Made by a program: the position numbers and the translations under genes | IMG/VR virus record: IMGVR_UViG_3300029288_005873 | Coordinates: 64,001 to 128,000 of that record | Direction: 5' to 3' (one strand) | Source of the DNA: a virus | Lineage: Duplodnaviria > Caudoviricetes | Length of the DNA stretch: 64,000 bases | In this document: piece by piece, positions 15,357 through 51,677 of the stretch | Layout of the letters: every line of letters starts with the position of its first letter | Position numbering within the stretch: position 1 is the stretch's first letter | The notes under the pieces: model-generated | What the model saw: only the letters and a program-made list of their open reading frames with translations | Databases searched by the model: none | What the model was told of the DNA's origin: nothing

Positions 15357-15593
15357 CTATTTATCTTCTCTCAGTGAATTAGCTAAATTAGTCGCATATG
15401 TAAACAGTGGACCTTTACAAATTTGACGAGGATAAGGATACGTATTAATATTGCCAATTAGGTTTTCGATAACTCCAATTGGCAAATGATTTTGTATAAG
15501 ATCATATAGAAACAAAACCAACGCATCGTTACACCAAGATGTGTTTTCTTTGCACGACTTCTCTAACTCCCCAATTTTCTTCTTTTTTGCCAT
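15357..15593 (-). CDS. small helical protein, tandem paralog B
   Basis: LVLFLYDLIQNHL.IG.IE...KG.L..YA..LA..L; aligns with upstream ORF. Confidence 0.65.
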   Translation of the reverse strand: MAKKKKIGELEKSCKENTSWCNDALVLFLYDLIQNHLPIGVIENLIGNINTYPYPRQICKGPLFTYATNLANSLREDK

Positions 15594-15594
15594 A

Positions 15595-15862
15595 TTAGTC
15601 TCTTTTTCTCAACCGTTCTGCCAGGTCTTTGGCATAGTTGGCTAGCCAGCCTTTTTGTGAAACGGCTTGGCTGCTTTTCAACTTCGCCCATCATATCCTC
15701 AACCATGCCTATGGTCATATGGTCGCGCATAAGCTGATATAGGAAAGACACAAGCGGATCATCGGACCCAACATTACCACTTCGCTCACGCAACGCATCC
15801 ATACGATATGCTGTCTCCGTCAAAGAAACATGGCATTCCCTAAGCTCGTTATCTTGCGCCAT
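15595..15862 (-). CDS. small helical protein, tandem paralog A (+1 frameshift at 15652-15656)
   Basis: LVSFLYQLMRDHMTIGMVE; removing one A gives KGWLANYAKDLAERLRKRD* matching paralog B and a TAATATG junction. Confidence 0.65.
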
Positions 15863-15874
15863 TCTATTCCCCTT

Positions 15875-15910
15875 AAAAACAAAAACGCCCAAGCTTTTAA
15901 CTTGGGCGCC
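15875..15910 (-). terminator. intrinsic terminator of attenuator
   Basis: GCGCCCAAG-TTAAAAG-CTTGGGCGT-TTTTGTTTTT. Confidence 0.85.
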
Positions 15911-15938
15911 GGTTTTGCTGTTTATTTTCCGCTTTGGT

Positions 15939-16103
15939 TTATGCGCCCAAGTCTCCTATTAAGTTACTACCAAAGCGGACGTTTCCATTAAAAGAATAAG
16001 AACGCTCGGGCAGAATACTGGATGGCTGATTCCACACACACGTATCCAGTAGCCCATTTTGGGCTTTCTGGAAAGCTACTTTGTGTGTTAATGAACGCAT
16101 CAT
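15939..16103 (-). CDS. 54-aa leader peptide (uORF) of attenuator
   Basis: GGAGAT RBS; MMRSLTHK...IGDLGA*; last codons form the antiterminator strand. Confidence 0.65.
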   Translation of the reverse strand: MMRSLTHKVAFQKAQNGLLDTCVWNQPSSILPERSYSFNGNVRFGSNLIGDLGA

Positions 16104-16175
16104 TTTTTATATCTCCAAAAACAGCACCAGAGGGTTTAGTTGCTTTAATGGCATACTAGACCTAGTCTGGCGCGG

Positions 16176-16299
16176 CGGGGAGTTTCCGATTCGAACGGAA
16201 AGCTTGTGGGCTTCACAGGAGTTGGTCGTTTACGACCGAGAAATGAAGCAGGTTATTCTGGTTTGGCTCCAGTTGGCACCCCAGGTGCCAAAACTCCCC
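16176..16299 (-). ncRNA. giant-variable-arm tRNA-like RNA, copy D (most divergent)
   Basis: GGGGAGT/ACTCCCC acceptor; CTGG-AGCCAAA-CCAG; GCTTCA/TGAAGC with CTC-GGTCG TAAA CGACC; TTCCG TTCGAAT CGGAA. Confidence 0.75.
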
Positions 16300-16336
16300 A
16301 AAATTAGGAATGCGCGAGCGAGGAAGTCTTTTGTGT

Positions 16337-16408
16337 TAGCGGATGAGGGGATTGAACCCTCAACCTTCTGATTATAGGTCAGACGCTCTACCATTGAGCT
16401 GATTCGCT
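16337..16408 (-). tRNA. tRNA-Ile(TAT), C33 variant
   Basis: AGCGAAT/ATCCGCT (one mismatch); TCTGA CC-TAT-AA TCAGA; GAGGG TTCAATC CCCTC. Confidence 0.82.
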
Positions 16409-16437
16409 TGTGGACTTCTTTCCTTTGCGCATACCCG

Positions 16438-16574
16438 TCTGCCCGCTGGGATTCGAACCCAGATGATTTTCGCGTGTAGGTTCAGTATATTAGCTCCAAA
16501 GGAGCCGAGTAAAGGAACTAGATGCTTTTTGAAAGCTCCAAATGCTTTTGCCGCTCCAATTCGGCCACGGGCAG
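16438..16574 (-). ncRNA. giant-variable-arm tRNA-like RNA, copy B
   Basis: CTGCCCG/CGGGCAG-A; GCCG AATTGGAG CGGC; AAAGC-ATTTGGA-GCTTT; ~65-nt insert; CTGGG TTCGAAT CCCAG. Confidence 0.85.
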
Positions 16575-16645
16575 ATAAAAAACAAACTAGCCTAATCTAT
16601 CAATTTTACAGCATAATAATTAAACTAGTTAAGGAGGAACTTAGT

Positions 16646-17161
16646 ATGCTAATTTGTCGTAACTGTAACCAACCTTTTCCCTACAGCATTATCGTAAATG
16701 GGAAAGTGCGAAACCTACAACACAGAAAATTCTGTCTCAAATGCTCTACTTTCGGGAAGCATAATACCTGCGCAGATATAAAACAAAAACTCTCTGATCA
16801 GAAAATTTGCGCTAAGTATCACAATCTTTTTAGCAAAGACGATTTCTACAAACGGGCAAACGGTAGTCCTATTTCATATTGTAGAGAATGCGCCCGAAAA
16901 TGGTTCCTTGATTGGCAACATTCCATCAAAAAACAGTGCGTTGATTACAAAGGAGGCTGCTGTATCTTATGTGGATACAACAAATACTTCGGCTCGCTGG
17001 AATTTCACCACTTGGATAGGAGTCAAAAAGATTTCACCATATCAAGTCACAGAAGTCTTTCTTTCGACCAACTCAAAGAAGAACTAGATAAATGTATCCT
17101 TCTTTGTGCCAACTGTCATCGTGAGGTACATGGTGGAATTACTGAATTCCCAGCTGATTAG
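16646..17161 (+). mobile_element. HNH homing endonuclease, free-standing
   Basis: AAGGAGG RBS; CILCGY...LEFHH.D...KDF.IS...ELDKCILLCANCHREVH; only credible plus-strand gene. Confidence 0.85.
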
Positions 17162-24351: not shown

Positions 24352-28778
<4,427 letters not shown>

Positions 28779-29714: not shown

Positions 29715-31817
29715 TCATTTTTCTTCCTCCTTCGGCAATAGACCAATTTTCCTGCCGAGTGTTTGCCATGCCATAGCCGCAGTAAGAGGCACTACGGCAT
29801 TCCCCAATGTTCTTAATCTATCACTTCTAGAGCACATATGTGGTAGGCTAGTCGTTATTTTTCCCGTCCCTTTTCCTGTTTTACAGGTTGACTGCCAGTT
29901 TCTGAATGCTGACATACGCATGTCCAGTGTGGGGGCAGACCCATTAGCATTTCCACGAATAGCGGGTTTAGCATCATCCGACATCCGCGCCCACCCTTCT
30001 GCGTCGCCAGGCGTTGGAGGGAAGGGCGAATCCGACCAACCCTCCCCGCCGAACCGCCTTGGTTCGATCCGTACTGAGCTGCCGATGGAGTCGGCCAAAA
30101 TTCTGCCACATCTGGTAGCGTCCTGTCCGATTCTGGTCTCGGCTTCCCATCCCTCGTTCTTTTCCTCCAGTCCGCACCGCCCTTGTGATCCCTGCTTGCT
30201 GGCGTCGGCCATTGTGCAGCCGCAGATGGAAGTGTCAGATCTCCCTTCGTTCCGTGCTGATTCGGACCCCCTTTTGTTCCATCTGTCGCTCTCGCGGTTG
30301 GCCATGATGAAGAGTCGTTTTCTGAGATGAGGAGCACCGACTTCTGCCGCGCTGAATATTCCCGCTTCAATTCGGTAATCCATTCCCCAAAGGTCTTCAC
30401 ATACGTCTCTGAACATTGTGTTGAGCAGGTTTGGGACATTTTCGAAGAAGCATACAGTAGGTGACACTTCTCCGACAATCCTTGCGAACTGCGGCCAGAG
30501 GTTTCGGTCGTCTTCTTTTCCGCGCCGTTTTCCTGCAACAGAGTGAGGGGTACAATTGTGTACCGCCATTCCTTCGGCAATGTATGATTCATCTTCCAAT
30601 ACAGAAATGTTCCATACAGTGCCGAAACCACACTGTTCCATGTATCTGACCGGCTTCCATCCGTATATTCCGTCGATAAAAGGTTCACGGTTTCTTGAGC
30701 GGATGTTGAGTTTCCAGGCATCACGCTGTCGGACTGTTCTTCCTTCAATAATACAGGTGTCACTTTTTCTATGACTTTTGATAACAGAACAGACAACTCC
30801 TCTAACGCTTTGTGCGATAAGCGACATTCCCATAGATAGTGCCCTACTGGTGCTACTTGACTCGCGCAACTTGTACGAGTCGTATCCATCTCCAGACAAA
30901 TAGCCTTGCAACAAGGCATTTGCTTTGCGCCAAGGAAGTTCCAAAGCACACCTTGGAATCCGTTTTCCATGGGCCAATCTCCCAAAAGGAAGAAGGAATT
31001 TATACAAGGATGTATCTGTAATATGGAATTTTGTTGCTGTTCGCCCTTCTTCACGATAGGCATGAAAACCTGCGAACGCGATTCTGGAGGCAAGATCATC
31101 AGCTTCCTTATGCCCACAGGTAATGATTGTGCGTCCCATCGGCTTCCTAGTTTTGCGCAATCCTTTCCTGTCGCAAAGATATCCATCGGCGATATATCTT
31201 CCAACAACCCACCAAAATTCAACACTGTGGTTGTCATCGATAATGGCTTCAGGAACAACCTGGCACACCATCTTCCCGCACAAAGATTCTGCGGAAACGA
31301 ATCCCGGTTTGCTGTATATTTTTCTATACTTTCTGGTTGTATTGTCCCATATTTTAGACACATCTCTTGCGTAGAAGGGATGCTCATGTGTTGTGATGAC
31401 ATCTGAACCCTGTGCCCGCACACGCATGAGTTGGGCGTTTTCTCTACACATAATGGATGTAATGGGTTTCCATCTTCCCAGATGTGTAAGGACACAATCT
31501 CCCACACACAATTCTTCAATAGGTCTATACCCAGATTCGGTAAGCACCAATGTTCCAGCAGCGAAGCAGGGGAACCCTCCAGTGATACAATCCACTTTTC
31601 CACGCCAAGGGCGGCCATCGAAGGTGAACACGCTATCCCAGATAGGCGCTTCATCCAAGATCTTTTCTTCCATCCTGGCCACGAGGACCGATGCGGCGTA
31701 AGTTTCAAGCTCGACATAACAAACAGTTCTGGATCTGGGCTCGGCGAGCTTAAGTCCGAGTTCGAGCCCTCCAATTCCTGAGCAGAGGGACAAAATCCTT
31801 GGGGAATATGTAGCCAC
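29715..31817 (-). CDS. C5 DNA cytosine methyltransferase, frame A (motifs I-VIII and X), intein-containing
   Basis: SLCSGIGG, GGFP|C, FFENV, HLRKRLF, RLRTLGNAVVP; GTG start at 31817. Confidence 0.9.
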   Translation of the reverse strand: MATYSPRILSLCSGIGGLELGLKLAEPRSRTVCYVELETYAASVLVARMEEKILDEAPIWDSVFTFDGRPWRGKVDCITGGFPCFAAGTLVLTESGYRPIEELCVGDCVLTHLGRWKPITSIMCRENAQLMRVRAQGSDVITTHEHPFYARDVSKIWDNTTRKYRKIYSKPGFVSAESLCGKMVCQVVPEAIIDDNHSVEFWWVVGRYIADGYLCDRKGLRKTRKPMGRTIITCGHKEADDLASRIAFAGFHAYREEGRTATKFHITDTSLYKFLLPFGRLAHGKRIPRCALELPWRKANALLQGYLSGDGYDSYKLRESSSTSRALSMGMSLIAQSVRGVVCSVIKSHRKSDTCIIEGRTVRQRDAWKLNIRSRNREPFIDGIYGWKPVRYMEQCGFGTVWNISVLEDESYIAEGMAVHNCTPHSVAGKRRGKEDDRNLWPQFARIVGEVSPTVCFFENVPNLLNTMFRDVCEDLWGMDYRIEAGIFSAAEVGAPHLRKRLFIMANRESDRWNKRGSESARNEGRSDTSICGCTMADASKQGSQGRCGLEEKNEGWEAETRIGQDATRCGRILADSIGSSVRIEPRRFGGEGWSDSPFPPTPGDAEGWARMSDDAKPAIRGNANGSAPTLDMRMSAFRNWQSTCKTGKGTGKITTSLPHMCSRSDRLRTLGNAVVPLTAAMAWQTLGRKIGLLPKEEEK

Positions 31818-31819
31818 AT
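29855..31819 (-). CDS. overlapping +1-frame polypeptide of the methyltransferase (WPTP repeats and motif IX-like LNPxFVExLMGLP)
   Basis: Stop-free over the whole gene; ATG overlaps the frame-A GTG (ATGTG) behind one GGAG RBS. Confidence 0.72.
   Translation of the reverse strand: MWLHIPQGFCPSAQELEGSNSDLSSPSPDPELFVMSSLKLTPHRSSWPGWKKRSWMKRLSGIACSPSMAALGVEKWIVSLEGSPASLLEHWCLPNLGIDLLKNCVWEIVSLHIWEDGNPLHPLCVEKTPNSCVCGHRVQMSSQHMSIPSTQEMCLKYGTIQPESIEKYTANRDSFPQNLCAGRWCARLFLKPLSMTTTVLNFGGLLEDISPMDIFATGKDCAKLGSRWDAQSLPVGIRKLMILPPESRSQVFMPIVKKGEQQQNSILQIHPCINSFFLLGDWPMENGFQGVLWNFLGAKQMPCCKAICLEMDTTRTSCASQVAPVGHYLWECRLSHKALEELSVLLSKVIEKVTPVLLKEEQSDSVMPGNSTSAQETVNLLSTEYTDGSRSDTWNSVVSALYGTFLYWKMNHTLPKEWRYTIVPLTLLQENGAEKKTTETSGRSSQGLSEKCHLLYASSKMSQTCSTQCSETYVKTFGEWITELKREYSARQKSVLLISENDSSSWPTARATDGTKGGPNQHGTKGDLTLPSAAAQWPTPASRDHKGGADWRKRTRDGKPRPESDRTLPDVAEFWPTPSAAQYGSNQGGSAGRVGRIRPSLQRLATQKGGRGCRMMLNPLFVEMLMGLPPHWTCVCQHSETGSQPVKQEKGREK
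30555..31568 (-). mobile_element. 338-aa intein with LAGLIDADG endonuclease, inserted at the catalytic PC motif
   Basis: Starts CFAAGT, has TxEHPF block B, VGRYIADG and LQGYLSGDG, ends VHN before the catalytic Cys. Confidence 0.93.
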
Positions 31820-31940
31820 GGTTCTCCAGTTTATGACATGGCACCAAGAATCAGTGCGAAGCCGAATGCTACCAAACATATGACGCCAAGGACCAGTGAG
31901 GTCCTAACGTTACTTTCTTCTGTCTTTTCCATTACAACCT

Positions 31941-32387
31941 TTACTTTCCAGTCGATCCAAATCCACCGCTTCCGCGACCAGTGCCGTCCGACAAGGAAGG
32001 TTCTTCCTTCCATGTTCCACGGGATATGTTCACAAGAACACCTTGGGCTATCCTATCTCCACATTTAATACTATAAGGCATATTTCCCATATTTACTAGG
32101 AGGACCTTGACTTCACCCCTATAATCTGAGTCTACAATGCCAGGAGAGTTTAGAACAGTTACACCACTGTTTTTAGCAAGCCCAGAACGCGGACAAATAA
32201 AAAGTGTGAACCCCTCATGGAACTCAACAGCTATGCCTGTACCAACAAGTTTGCGTTCTCCCGGCATTAGAGTAGCATCTTCAGAACTATACAGATCAAC
32301 ACCAGCCGATCCATCAGTGGCATATGTTGGGGTATTACTGAAAGGAGAAAGTTTTGTAAATCTAGTTATAGCTGTTCTCTTACCCAT
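31941..32387 (-). CDS. dut: dUTPase (trimeric)
   Basis: AGVDL, PRSGLA, GIVDSDYRGE, DRIAQ, RGSGGFGSTG. Confidence 0.97.
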   Translation of the reverse strand: MGKRTAITRFTKLSPFSNTPTYATDGSAGVDLYSSEDATLMPGERKLVGTGIAVEFHEGFTLFICPRSGLAKNSGVTVLNSPGIVDSDYRGEVKVLLVNMGNMPYSIKCGDRIAQGVLVNISRGTWKEEPSLSDGTGRGSGGFGSTGK

Positions 32388-47128: not shown

Positions 47129-47959
47129 TCAAATCTCCGTAGTTTCCCATGAGCGCAACCTTTCCTTGTTTACTTTTGCTAGATTTTCTGGCGTATTCAA
47201 TATGGTCCTGAATGAATTATCCACGGAGAAAACAACCCCATGGCTCATAAGCGGCTTACCTCTTAATACGCACTGTACAAAGTTAAGAGCTATAGAGGCA
47301 GCTGTTATATTTGCCATCATATTTTGAGGAGCTGACTGGGCAAGTTCGGCACAACTTAATTGTGAATTGAATTTTCCATCCGAAGAAAGAAGACCTGGAT
47401 ATATTTCTGTGACCATTGGAAGACTAAAACTGTTACTACGTGAAGAACCATAGATGTGTCGGTTTGGAGAAAAGCCACAAACTACCTGACCAGAACTCTC
47501 CTCATTTCCGCAATCTACCCAAAATTTTTCACGAGAACGCGAATTAAGCATCCATTCATGAACAATTTTTCTAGATGCATTATTATCTACGCATCCTATA
47601 ACCATGTCTATATCAGTTTTTCGTATTGAATCTTCATCCTCCAGATAGGACGGTATCACATCTATCTGGAGTCCAAACGCCGAAGAGTACCTTCTAGCAA
47701 GTGCTTCCGCCTTATTTGTATCGAGGTCCCTTTGTACAAAATGCTGGCGCTCTAGATTCTTTCGTTCTACTTTATCTCCATCGGCTAACACTAGAGAAAT
47801 TGAATCATATGATGAGCGTTCGCTATTAAGCGACATGATTAATCTGGCTAGATGCCCAGCTACATATGCTCCAGTTCCTCCACACCCAAGAACAAGGATT
47901 CTCCGTGAAGGGGAGAATCCGCTCATTTTTCTAATATCAGGAAGGGTTATCGTTTCCAT
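47129..47959 (-). CDS. PRTRC-type ThiF/E1 enzyme (ubiquitin-like system 2)
   Basis: GCGGTG, DGDKVERKNLERQ, GCVDN..SR, W.DCGNE..SGQV, LSCAE. Confidence 0.9.
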   Translation of the reverse strand: METITLPDIRKMSGFSPSRRILVLGCGGTGAYVAGHLARLIMSLNSERSSYDSISLVLADGDKVERKNLERQHFVQRDLDTNKAEALARRYSSAFGLQIDVIPSYLEDEDSIRKTDIDMVIGCVDNNASRKIVHEWMLNSRSREKFWVDCGNEESSGQVVCGFSPNRHIYGSSRSNSFSLPMVTEIYPGLLSSDGKFNSQLSCAELAQSAPQNMMANITAASIALNFVQCVLRGKPLMSHGVVFSVDNSFRTILNTPENLAKVNKERLRSWETTEI

Positions 47960-48732
47960 GTCCTAATCCACGGGTAAGGTTCACCTTCATCATCCACGTC
48001 ATCTTCATACTCTTCCTCCTCCCCTTTGTCCATTTCCCTTTCCAATAGAAGTTCATGGATTTTTGCCGTTGGATCAGACTTGCTAACTCTGTCCATCCAA
48101 TCTTTTGGGAACTTGGCGCAAAGCATGGGGTCATCTTTTGTGTTAAAAATCTCATGGATTCCAACAGTAATGTGCTCTCCCCCCATAGATAGTCTAAAAC
48201 ATGTCTCAGGAAAAAGCTGCTCAACTTTCCCAACGATGCCATAGAAACGATCGGCAATCTCATCCCTATCATCTGTTTGAGAAAATGTGGCAGAAAACAA
48301 ACCATGACTATGGATTTCCATAACAATTACAGAGTCTTCAAAGGTTTGCGACCTATCAAAATGACAATGCGCGGCACATACCTCTTGCTGCGGGCAGTCA
48401 AGAAAATATTTCTTACGCCGACGATCATAGATAGCACGCACAGCAGCTTCACTTCTATGAAGTGAAAATACCTCACGGAAAAATGCAACTGCTTGCCACA
48501 AAAGGGACAGAGGCATTTTTGGGACAGCTAAGTCAAAACCTTCAGAAAGTCCGCAAGGCAAACCGGGAACCTTTACGTCAGTCATGCGCCGTCTAAATAT
48601 ACCTATTGAGTTTCTACGTATTTCCCAAAGACCATCCCCACACATAACAAACACAACAGGCTTGTCGCATTTCTGTGGAATCTCCCCTATAAAATGACCA
48701 ACAAGCATACTGTTCCCAAATGTATTACTCAT
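47947..48732 (-). CDS. PRTRC protein A-type JAB peptidase
   Basis: SEAA, PQQ, EIHSHG..ATFSQTDDRDE, YGIVG. Confidence 0.88.
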   Translation of the reverse strand: MSNTFGNSMLVGHFIGEIPQKCDKPVVFVMCGDGLWEIRRNSIGIFRRRMTDVKVPGLPCGLSEGFDLAVPKMPLSLLWQAVAFFREVFSLHRSEAAVRAIYDRRRKKYFLDCPQQEVCAAHCHFDRSQTFEDSVIVMEIHSHGLFSATFSQTDDRDEIADRFYGIVGKVEQLFPETCFRLSMGGEHITVGIHEIFNTKDDPMLCAKFPKDWMDRVSKSDPTAKIHELLLEREMDKGEEEEYEDDVDDEGEPYPWIRTWKR

Positions 48733-50771: not shown

Positions 50772-51677
50772 TTATTCCATGACTTTTGCCATCGCTTCTC
50801 CGATGGCTGTCACAACTGGCACTGGTACAGAATTGCCAATCTGTCTGTATGCCTGTGTCTTTGTTTTTGGCAGCTTAAAACTATCTGGAAAACCCTGCAT
50901 CCTTGCCCATTCGCGAGGCGTTAACCTTCTTATGATCGTACCATCAAACACCAGAATACGATCACCACTTGTTACCAATGTATTCCCAATCTCATCTGGA
51001 GTGTGAAGTGCTGGAAGAAAACGCCCCCCCCTATTGGGTCCTCTTTCATGCAACTTACGAAGATACCCAACCAGGACGGAATTCGAAGCGTTGAACTCAC
51101 TATCAACACCTTTTTGCATAATTGAGGATAAAGGTCTCATAAGCCCAGAATATCCTTCCGGAAACCTAAATGACGACCACGCTTTTTTGTTCCTGAAACC
51201 AACTATGAATACGCGTTTGCGACGCTGCGGCAATCCAAATTCCTCAGCTCCAAGCACCTGCCATGATGCGCAATAGCCAAGGTCTTTCAATGTGCTCATG
51301 ATGATGTCCAAAGTCCGACCACCATCGTGGCTTACGAGACCTTTTACGTTCTCGAACAAGCATGCGGAAGGCTTAGATACATCCATAAGGCGAGCAAGCT
51401 CAAAGAACATGTTGCCTCTCGGATCACGGAAACCTTTCCGCTTACCAAGATGAGAGAAAGGCTGGCAAGGAAAACCTCCACACAAAACGGACGTGTGACA
51501 AGGCAACCAAGGTACATTACTTATGTTTGATCCTTTTGGCTGTTCCCCGAAATTATCTGCGTATGTTGTTCGTGCCGCATCATCTATTTCGCACGATCCA
51601 ACACAACTGAATCCAGCCCGTTCCATTCCTAGCCTGATTCCGCCCATCCCGGCAAAGGCATCGTAGAACGTCAACAT
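50772..51677 (-). CDS. dcm: C5 DNA cytosine methyltransferase (single-chain)
   Basis: FAGMGG, GGFPCQPFS, FENVKGL, PQRRKR, LTPRE.AR.QGFP, QIGNSV. Confidence 0.95.
   Translation of the reverse strand: MLTFYDAFAGMGGIRLGMERAGFSCVGSCEIDDAARTTYADNFGEQPKGSNISNVPWLPCHTSVLCGGFPCQPFSHLGKRKGFRDPRGNMFFELARLMDVSKPSACLFENVKGLVSHDGGRTLDIIMSTLKDLGYCASWQVLGAEEFGLPQRRKRVFIVGFRNKKAWSSFRFPEGYSGLMRPLSSIMQKGVDSEFNASNSVLVGYLRKLHERGPNRGGRFLPALHTPDEIGNTLVTSGDRILVFDGTIIRRLTPREWARMQGFPDSFKLPKTKTQAYRQIGNSVPVPVVTAIGEAMAKVME

Follow-up and report, generated by a model that had tools for sequence, protein, structure and literature searches.

The sole characterised precedent for a DNA methylase gene read in two overlapping frames is M.EcoHK31I of E. 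coli HK31 (target YGGCCR), a cytosine-5 DNA methyltransferase (C5-methylase) composed of two polypeptides, both of which are needed for activity (PMC2836561). Its second chain, beta, starts internally; internal Met codons can act as starts, and in vitro the chain can do without its first 42 residues (PMC2836561). A methylase locus that resembles this layout, with an intein inserted in it, lies on the minus strand of the stretch of jumbo-phage DNA analysed here (the window: 64,000 nucleotides, bases 64001-128000 of IMG/VR record IMGVR_UViG_3300029288_005873, a 441,904-bp record rated 100% complete; the one run in which the whole stretch is present is a landfill metagenome). As in M.EcoHK31I, a second chain appears to be encoded in an alternative frame of the alpha gene, with a motif IX-like element on that second chain. 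The beta gene of M.EcoHK31I, however, is short and lies inside the alpha gene, whereas here the second frame starts with alpha and is co-extensive with it. The alpha chain of M.EcoHK31I is said to hold the target-recognition domain (TRD), whereas in this locus it is the second frame that holds WPTP repeats, which are probably the recognition module. M.EcoHK31I also differs from the present case in that an intein lies within the overlap here. The likeness is one of layout and is drawn from the published description, with which the account of M.EcoHK31I given in an earlier reading of this DNA by a model (the sequence-only reading) agrees.

The other systems that invite comparison are homing elements in phage methylase genes. 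The ShiLan domain, or Pacc40 insertion, is found in actinophage DNA methylases (PMC9957025, PMC11855218). There, as here, a homing element in a phage methylase gene is stop-free in a frame that does not encode its product, and a host frame is apparently read through. ShiLan elements, however, have no splicing domains in the host frame and carry the nuclease open reading frame (ORF) in the alternative frame, whereas the present element is a canonical intein with both domains in the same frame, and the read-through would concern a second host frame. A LAGLIDADG intein has also been described in actinophage methylases (PMC9957025). Compared with other C5-methylase inteins, the one in the window is of the same family and occupies the same site; most of the others carry the expected number of stops in their +1 frame, and only one clade, to which the window intein belongs, is stop-free. 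Both inteins and overlapping genes are well studied. When the literature was searched for inteins in overlapping or dual-coding genes, the ShiLan papers were all that came up, and no paper was found on an intein that a second host frame constrains.

The main elements of the locus are as follows.

29715..31817, minus strand: frame A, putative alpha chain precursor, 700 residues from GTG, with C5-methylase motifs I, IV, VI, VIII and X and the intein
29855..31819, minus strand: frame B, putative beta chain, 654 residues from ATG, in the +1 frame of A and open over its full length
30555..31568, minus strand: 338-codon class 1 intein with LAGLIDADG homing endonuclease, frame A residues 94-431
30554..31567, minus strand: frame-B reading of the intein DNA, 338 codons, stop-free, no family match
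31815..31819, minus strand: ATGTG overlapping starts, frame B at ATG 31819 and frame A at GTG 31817
31824..31827, minus strand: GGAG Shine-Dalgarno-like core, 4 nucleotides 5' of ATG 31819 and 6 nucleotides 5' of GTG 31817

The best explanation of this anatomy is probably a two-chain enzyme in which the beta chain is made from the shared 5' start and is read through the intein. The sequence-only reading had described the same two frames and their common start. Both ORFs were found, with frame B in the +1 frame of A, and the ATGTG behind a single GGAG can be read directly in the sequence. The upper bound that had been given for the locus, 31827, is the first base of the GGAG, so that both start codons are included.

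One line of evidence for this explanation is the absence of stops from frame B. Genes of the window have about 0.05 +1-frame stops per codon, and frame A has none over 663 codons. For the full frame-B ORF 14.7-27.3 stops are expected, and none occurs before the terminal stop. The N-extein by itself is marginal (4.4 stops expected, P = 0.005). For the intein, the naive figure of (61/64)^338 is about 9e-8, in line with the value near 1e-7 put forward in the sequence-only reading, and more realistic estimates also lie far from zero stops. Synonymous permutation of the intein's own codons gives an expectation of 10.1 stops and shuffling with the window's background codon usage one of 16.3, and zero was reached in 0 of 5000 synonymous shuffles. 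A regression on guanine-plus-cytosine (GC) content over 71 related inteins that are not purged of stops predicts 17.3 for the window intein, with P(0)=3e-8. In addition, Met followed by I, M, T, N or K forces a TGA in the +1 frame, and no such pair occurs in the window intein despite its 8 Met; this has a probability of about 0.1 alone and is consistent with the model. Chance and base composition were rejected as explanations on the strength of the shuffles and the GC-matched inteins, and the synonymous-codon shuffling that the sequence-only reading had suggested thus came out against chance. To an artefact in the wider sense, which would add assembly frameshifts in a single-frame gene to these two, we give next to no credence. 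The coding strand is indeed rich in purines and poor in T (0.23), and stops are somewhat less frequent for that reason, but the +2 frame of the same intein has 24 stops, the same layout recurs in independent assemblies from other samples, and the source contig spans the region without differences.

Related inteins show the same property. A single-sequence pattern search for close intein relatives in viral contigs found none, but alignment-based searches of viral contigs and genomes succeeded, yielding 160 loci with related inteins and, after deduplication, 93 inteins. Their +1-frame stops are bimodally distributed: 22 of the 93 have zero, none has one or two, and the remainder have 3-43. Where stops occur, their number is close to what permutation of the same intein predicts (in locus L009, 24 against 23.8). 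In a maximum-likelihood tree all the stop-free inteins fall in one 15-member clade, with a Shimodaira-Hasegawa-like approximate likelihood-ratio (SH-aLRT) support of 88, and its terminal branches are about 0.5-0.6 substitutions per site. Such divergence saturates synonymous sites, so the stop-free state has been maintained by selection and not recently inherited. Four members of the clade (L015, L011, L091 and L099) have regained stops. To judge from the tree, being stop-free is an old property of the intein clade that did not arise in this phage.

The nature of this selection can be seen in 15 close intein variants from gut phages, in which the variable sites number 109, 48 and 26 at frame-A codon positions 3, 1 and 2, respectively. 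Read in frame B, the changes are 166 nonsynonymous and 17 synonymous. About 6.3 stop-creating changes that are synonymous in frame A are expected, and none is seen. Frame-B residues thus vary freely while stops are absent, and the selection is against stops only. The same figures bear on the idea that the +1 frame of the intein encodes a product serving the intein itself, for example a hidden homing endonuclease, whether of ShiLan type or otherwise out-of-frame. Out-of-frame HNH genes in phage methylase insertions have been published (PMC11855218), which lends the idea some plausibility. Against this, the residues evolve almost freely, a LAGLIDADG nuclease is already present in frame A, and the open frame always runs on into a host ORF on both sides. 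Pfam and PHROG searches of the intein stretch in frame B (residues 85-440) gave no match, and a hidden nuclease there was rejected for that reason. An intein-serving product of any kind we regard as highly improbable.

The absence of stops is associated with a +1 ORF in the host. The hosts were sorted by their exteins only, according to whether the +1 frame was open, with a start codon, over 25 codons or more immediately 5' of the insertion site, and over 60 codons or more immediately 3' of it. In hosts of this kind, 22 inteins are purged and 7 are not; in all others, none is purged and 64 are not. Collapsed to lineages, the four numbers become 8, 7, 0 and 64 (Fisher 2.5e-7). The comparison of homologous inteins, which the sequence-only reading had suggested, thus finds zero stops only where the host exteins carry a +1 ORF across the site. 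The purged two-frame hosts of the WPTP type are the window, L007, L008, L010, L087/L088 and L089, the WPTP units of L089 being in frame A itself. Intein-bearing members of the subfamily whose frame B starts with MW are purged in all five cases seen here. Purging also extends beyond WPTP-type hosts, to classical single-frame hosts with a short, phrog_16143-like +1 ORF across motif IV, namely L012 and the gut-phage group. Stops are present where the +1 ORF does not span the site. In L015, L128 and L155, which have the same +1 module, the +1 ORF begins 3' of the intein, and the intein has 15-21 stops; in L009 the WPTP-type tail begins at the intein end, and there are 24 stops; L011 and L091 have no +1-frame module 3' of the intein, and have 8 and 13 stops.

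The short +1 ORF of the single-frame hosts is a feature in its own right. It ends ..SLSDILE..YFLS.KAC.GILRRA.KRGK.LP.. and lies over motifs IV-VIII of complete single-frame methylases in L012, L015, L017-L037, L128 and L155. Most of the copies tested match phrog_16143, and the start of the ORF lies on one or the other side of motif IV, depending on the host. A single frameshift moves the rest of the methylase into the +1 frame in L034 and L035 (in the C-extein) and in L089 (in the WPTP region); pseudogenisation, misassembly and genuine recoding are all conceivable causes.

Frame A has the anatomy of a C5-methylase catalytic core. It matches PF00145 (7e-30) in two stretches on either side of the intein, Hint_2 (7e-10) between the PF00145 pieces, and phrog_363 (2e-52). 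The motifs by which such a core is recognised, I (FxGxG), IV (PC), VI (ENV), VIII (QxRxR-like) and X (GNxVxP), are all found on this one chain, and motifs I-VIII and X were located in the frame to which the sequence-only reading had assigned them.

31793-31755, minus strand: motif I, frame A
30449-30429, minus strand: motif VI, frame A
30335-30300, minus strand: motif VIII, frame A
29819-29787, minus strand: motif X, frame A

A TRD and motif IX between motifs VIII and X are not found on the same chain, the motif IX-like element being in frame B, and this part of frame A is poorly conserved (47-63% against the related loci L167 and L168). Motif IV (30554-30537, frame A) has the sequence PCTPHS where PCQPFS is usual. 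Among homologues, 4 of 24 with an intein and 2 of 41 without one share this T and H pair, which marks it as a recurrent variant and not decay.

The intein comes after GGFP and before the catalytic Cys of PC(T)PHS (Cys codon 30554-30552). It has the hallmarks of its kind, opening with a Cys and ending in HN with a Cys directly after it, and carrying in between a TxxH block and two motifs of LAGLIDADG type.

31208-31176, minus strand: first LAGLIDADG motif, frame A intein
30914-30879, minus strand: second LAGLIDADG motif, frame A intein

In an alignment of 24 intein-bearing homologues (alignment A1), C94, H122, D221/G222, D320/G321, H430, N431 and C432 are invariant, and the related inteins have the same insertion point, before the motif IV catalytic Cys. 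By its sequence, with the catalytic residues conserved, the element belongs to the class 1 LAGLIDADG inteins. The Hint_2 match and the invariant alignment columns bear out the earlier identification of a 338-codon LAGLIDADG intein at the catalytic Cys. The search for homologues returned 743 proteins, nearly all of them intein-bearing C5-methylases by their Pfam domains. Short diverged contigs (<90% identity) from two landfill metagenomes match the N-extein (31566, 31588) and then continue ..PC|QPFSVAGKR; these are alleles without the intein, from related phages of the same habitat, and thus possible homing targets. Another Hint-like match, a weak one (38% over 78 residues, E 7e-5), is located outside the window at G000:C1:407963-408214, within a 1056-codon ORF, and may be a second intein of the phage.

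The recognisable part of frame B lies 3' of the intein.

29921..30304, minus strand: functional part of frame B, WPTx units and motif IX-like element (phrog_1008, 5.6e-22)
30304-30278, minus strand: WPTx unit, frame B
30211-30176, minus strand: WPTx unit, frame B
30097-30068, minus strand: WPTx unit, frame B
29971-29921, minus strand: motif IX-like element LNPLFVEMLMGLPPHWT, frame B

A Pfam search of frame B gave no match; the last ~200 residues match phrog_1008, and the motif IX-like element is where the sequence-only reading had put it. A database search with the frame-B tail returned 407 proteins, none with a Pfam domain, the best of which are full-length frame-B ORFs of 298-380 residues starting MW(L/I). 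A tblastn search with the tail matches annotated phage methylase genes, and in Aeromonas phage AeroV_348 and Synechococcus phage Yong-M2-251 the matches fall in the +1 frame of the annotated coding sequence, which is open there too. The only match in a blastn search of the locus against GenBank phages was 102 bp, in a mycobacteriophage methylase. Three of the best relatives were traced to contigs. Two of these, L167 and L168, have the gene order of the window, with the dUTPase upstream and the helicase downstream, and carry an intein-less allele. In the syntenic relatives the gene caller recorded frame B only, without a Pfam domain; other records call frame A only. Conservation relative to L167 and L168 differs between the two halves of the gene. 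Frame A is ahead over the first ~150 codons, at 70-87% against 43-70% for frame B; over codons 150-300 frame B leads, at 73-93% against 47-63% for frame A. Since conservation switches between frames along the gene, each frame is functional in a different half, and the 5' half of frame B appears to be a weakly constrained shadow of the catalytic core.

The distribution of motifs could also be read as that of a single chain, made by two programmed frameshifts, from A to B after motif VIII and from B back to A before motif X, with frame B never initiated in its own right. The resulting order, motifs I-VIII (A), WPTP units and motif IX (B) and motif X (A), would yield a normal single-chain methylase, and L089 has its WPTP units in the frame of motifs I-VIII, and motifs IX and X together in the other frame. 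Frameshifting would, however, leave unexplained why frame B is open across both the N-extein and the intein. In all close relatives, moreover, the ORFs of A and B are co-extensive and have a common start, M.EcoHK31I functions as two polypeptides (PMC2836561), and no slippery site was noticed, though none was searched for. We consider this explanation very unlikely.

A model of the complex, built for the closest intein-less relatives with alpha from L167 and the beta of one of them, is in keeping with two chains that together resemble one enzyme. Its score was 0.90 and that of the best of three controls 0.00, the 0.90 mark being one reached by 58 of 80 solved complexes and by 2 of 110 mismatched pairs. 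At least 63% of contacts are common to the runs, and the partner has a predicted local distance difference test score (pLDDT) of at least 50. In the model, beta residues 309-335, the counterpart of the WPTP/motif IX-like part of the window protein, lie on alpha residues 296-297, 312-320 and 356-375, in the motif X region. As a prediction, the model shows likeness to a complete C5-methylase fold and not binding, because the halves of a split enzyme can pass such a test through their resemblance to solved single-chain methylases. The relative's beta chain modelled alone with AlphaFold (28-row alignment) had a mean pLDDT of 49.5. Confidence was low throughout, so that neither tolerance of an insert nor specific disorder of the N-terminal shadow can be judged from this model.

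The start region reads GGAG (31827-31824), AACC, ATGTGG. The maximal ORFs extend a little further, frame A to 29715..31847 (minus strand, 710 residues from TTG 31847) and frame B to 29855..31879 (minus strand, 674 residues from ATG 31879), and these upstream starts are possible in principle. A Shine-Dalgarno-like core precedes about half of the first ATGs in the window, against 15% of all ATG trinucleotides. An [A/G]TGTGG start is also present in L167, L168, L169, L003, L007, L088 and Synechococcus phage Yong-M2-251, as GTGTGG in L169 and L003, and in L167, L168, L169 and L003 frames A and B are co-extensive from this common start. Among called frame-B proteins of at least 270 residues, 25 of 71 start with MW. 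In L167 and L168 the TAA stop of the upstream gene overlaps the ATG (TAATGTGG), coupling the start to the upstream gene. In the window, the dUTPase gene is overlapped at its 3' end by a small ORF at 31831-32013 (minus strand) that has a hydrophobic tail (..LVLGVICLVAFGFALILGA..) and whose TAA (31833-31831) lies 11 nucleotides 5' of the ATGTG start. A scan of the locus for internal promoters and terminators gave counts at or below shuffle expectation.

If beta is a separate chain, it could instead be made only from an internal start 3' of the intein, as in M.EcoHK31I, the openness upstream being kept for some other reason, for example that ribosomes starting at the strong ATG must not terminate within the alpha coding region. 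Candidate start codons are available.

30419..30592, minus strand: possible internal frame-B starts 3' of the intein, ATG 30592 (MNHT..) and ATG 30439 (MSQT.., shadow of the motif VI ENV)

Neither ATG has a Shine-Dalgarno-like core 4-12 nucleotides upstream, which is weak evidence, since only about half of the window's genes have one. We judge an exclusively internal start unlikely. It would leave some 420 stop-free upstream codons unexplained, mobile insert included, with selection ongoing in at least 8 lineages, and the ATGTGG co-start is conserved and, in L167 and L168, coupled to the stop of the upstream gene. Of internal starting, A-to-B frameshifting and shared 5' initiation, only the last predicts that both the N-extein and a 1-kb insert should be stop-free, and the data on the MW-start subfamily fit it.

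A number of observations nevertheless weigh against shared 5' initiation followed by read-through, and several of them favour the internal start. The beta chain of M.EcoHK31I is wholly internal and tolerates N-terminal truncation (PMC2836561), ATGs are present at 30592 and 30439, and over its 5' half frame B falls short of frame A in conservation. The +1 ORF begins after or at the intein end in L009, L015, L128, L155 and L045. Hosts of the Aeromonas-phage two-frame type (L045, L107 and L149) carry inteins of another clade, with 4-12 stops; together with L009, these unpurged cases indicate that read-through is not obligatory across the family, and in the Aeromonas-phage-type subfamily beta must, on this sequence evidence, start 3' of the intein or be defective. 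The spacing between GGAG and ATG, at 4 nucleotides, is short. A 338-residue insert after beta residue 84 might impair the chain. Finally, translation of frame B through the intein is something that we infer from sequence. The proposal of the sequence-only reading, that the intein DNA was purged of +1 stops because frame B must be translated through it, is thus supported by the comparative evidence on stop avoidance and on the association with the host; the purged state is neither universal nor specific to this phage.

With shared 5' initiation, the locus would work in the following way. A single gene would specify, in two reading frames, a two-chain C5-methylase like M.EcoHK31I. Frame A would supply the alpha chain, with the catalytic core (motifs I-VIII) and motif X, from which the intein must splice out. 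Frame B, starting two bases upstream of A at the same ribosome-binding site (ATGTG), would supply a beta chain that is a shadow over the 5' half of the gene and then a WPTP-repeat module and a motif IX-like helix packing on motif X of alpha. At 1014 bp, the intein leaves frame B unshifted; ribosomes in frame B would read through it and leave a 338-residue non-splicing stretch in beta. An intein copy with a stop in the +1 frame would truncate beta and cost the phage its methylase, and purifying selection would in this way keep the intein lineage resident in such hosts free of +1 stops while the shadow residues vary freely.

The surroundings of the locus are those of a phage genome in which nearly all genes of the window are on the minus strand, with an overall GC content of about 0.43. 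The methylase is flanked by the dUTPase gene (31941-32387) and a gene for a DinG-like helicase (26859-28778), with two small ORFs between the methylase locus and the helicase gene. The window helicase has no intein; a helicase intein is suggested in L169 (3221-3897), where the product of the downstream gene, 810 residues long, has matches to both Helicase_C_2 and Hom_end_hint. The phage has three more complete single-frame C5-methylases (PF00145 positions 1-323), at G000:C1:13599-14567, 15574-16710 and 114787-115671. The last corresponds to window positions 50787-51671, and its +1-frame stop density is normal. Elsewhere in the window, at 47937-48732 (minus strand), ORFs of 129 and 261 codons lie on the same strand in different frames with an overlap of ~380 bases, and the 129-codon ORF has a single stop in its +2 frame.

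For annotation, these loci carry the warning that calling frame A only or frame B only misses half of the enzyme. For the intein, we are inclined to think that it belongs to a 'bilingual' lineage that has long co-evolved with two-frame methylases, being a splicing intein with its nuclease in frame A and a passive, stop-free linker in frame B. No mobile element before it would have been shown to have adapted to a target that codes in two frames, and its purging would be natural evidence that the +1 ORF is translated from the shared ATGTG, as opposed to an internal start or frameshifting. If this is true, a selfish element has been filtered by a constraint in its target gene that is invisible in the annotated frame. 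Two-frame phage methylases are very common, and the intein would provide a natural 1-kb probe of how their second chain is made; a +1 frame that stays open over its whole length is expected under 5' co-initiation and under no other model. The purge would then be comparable to ribosome-profiling evidence for translation of the full-length +1 ORF from the shared start.

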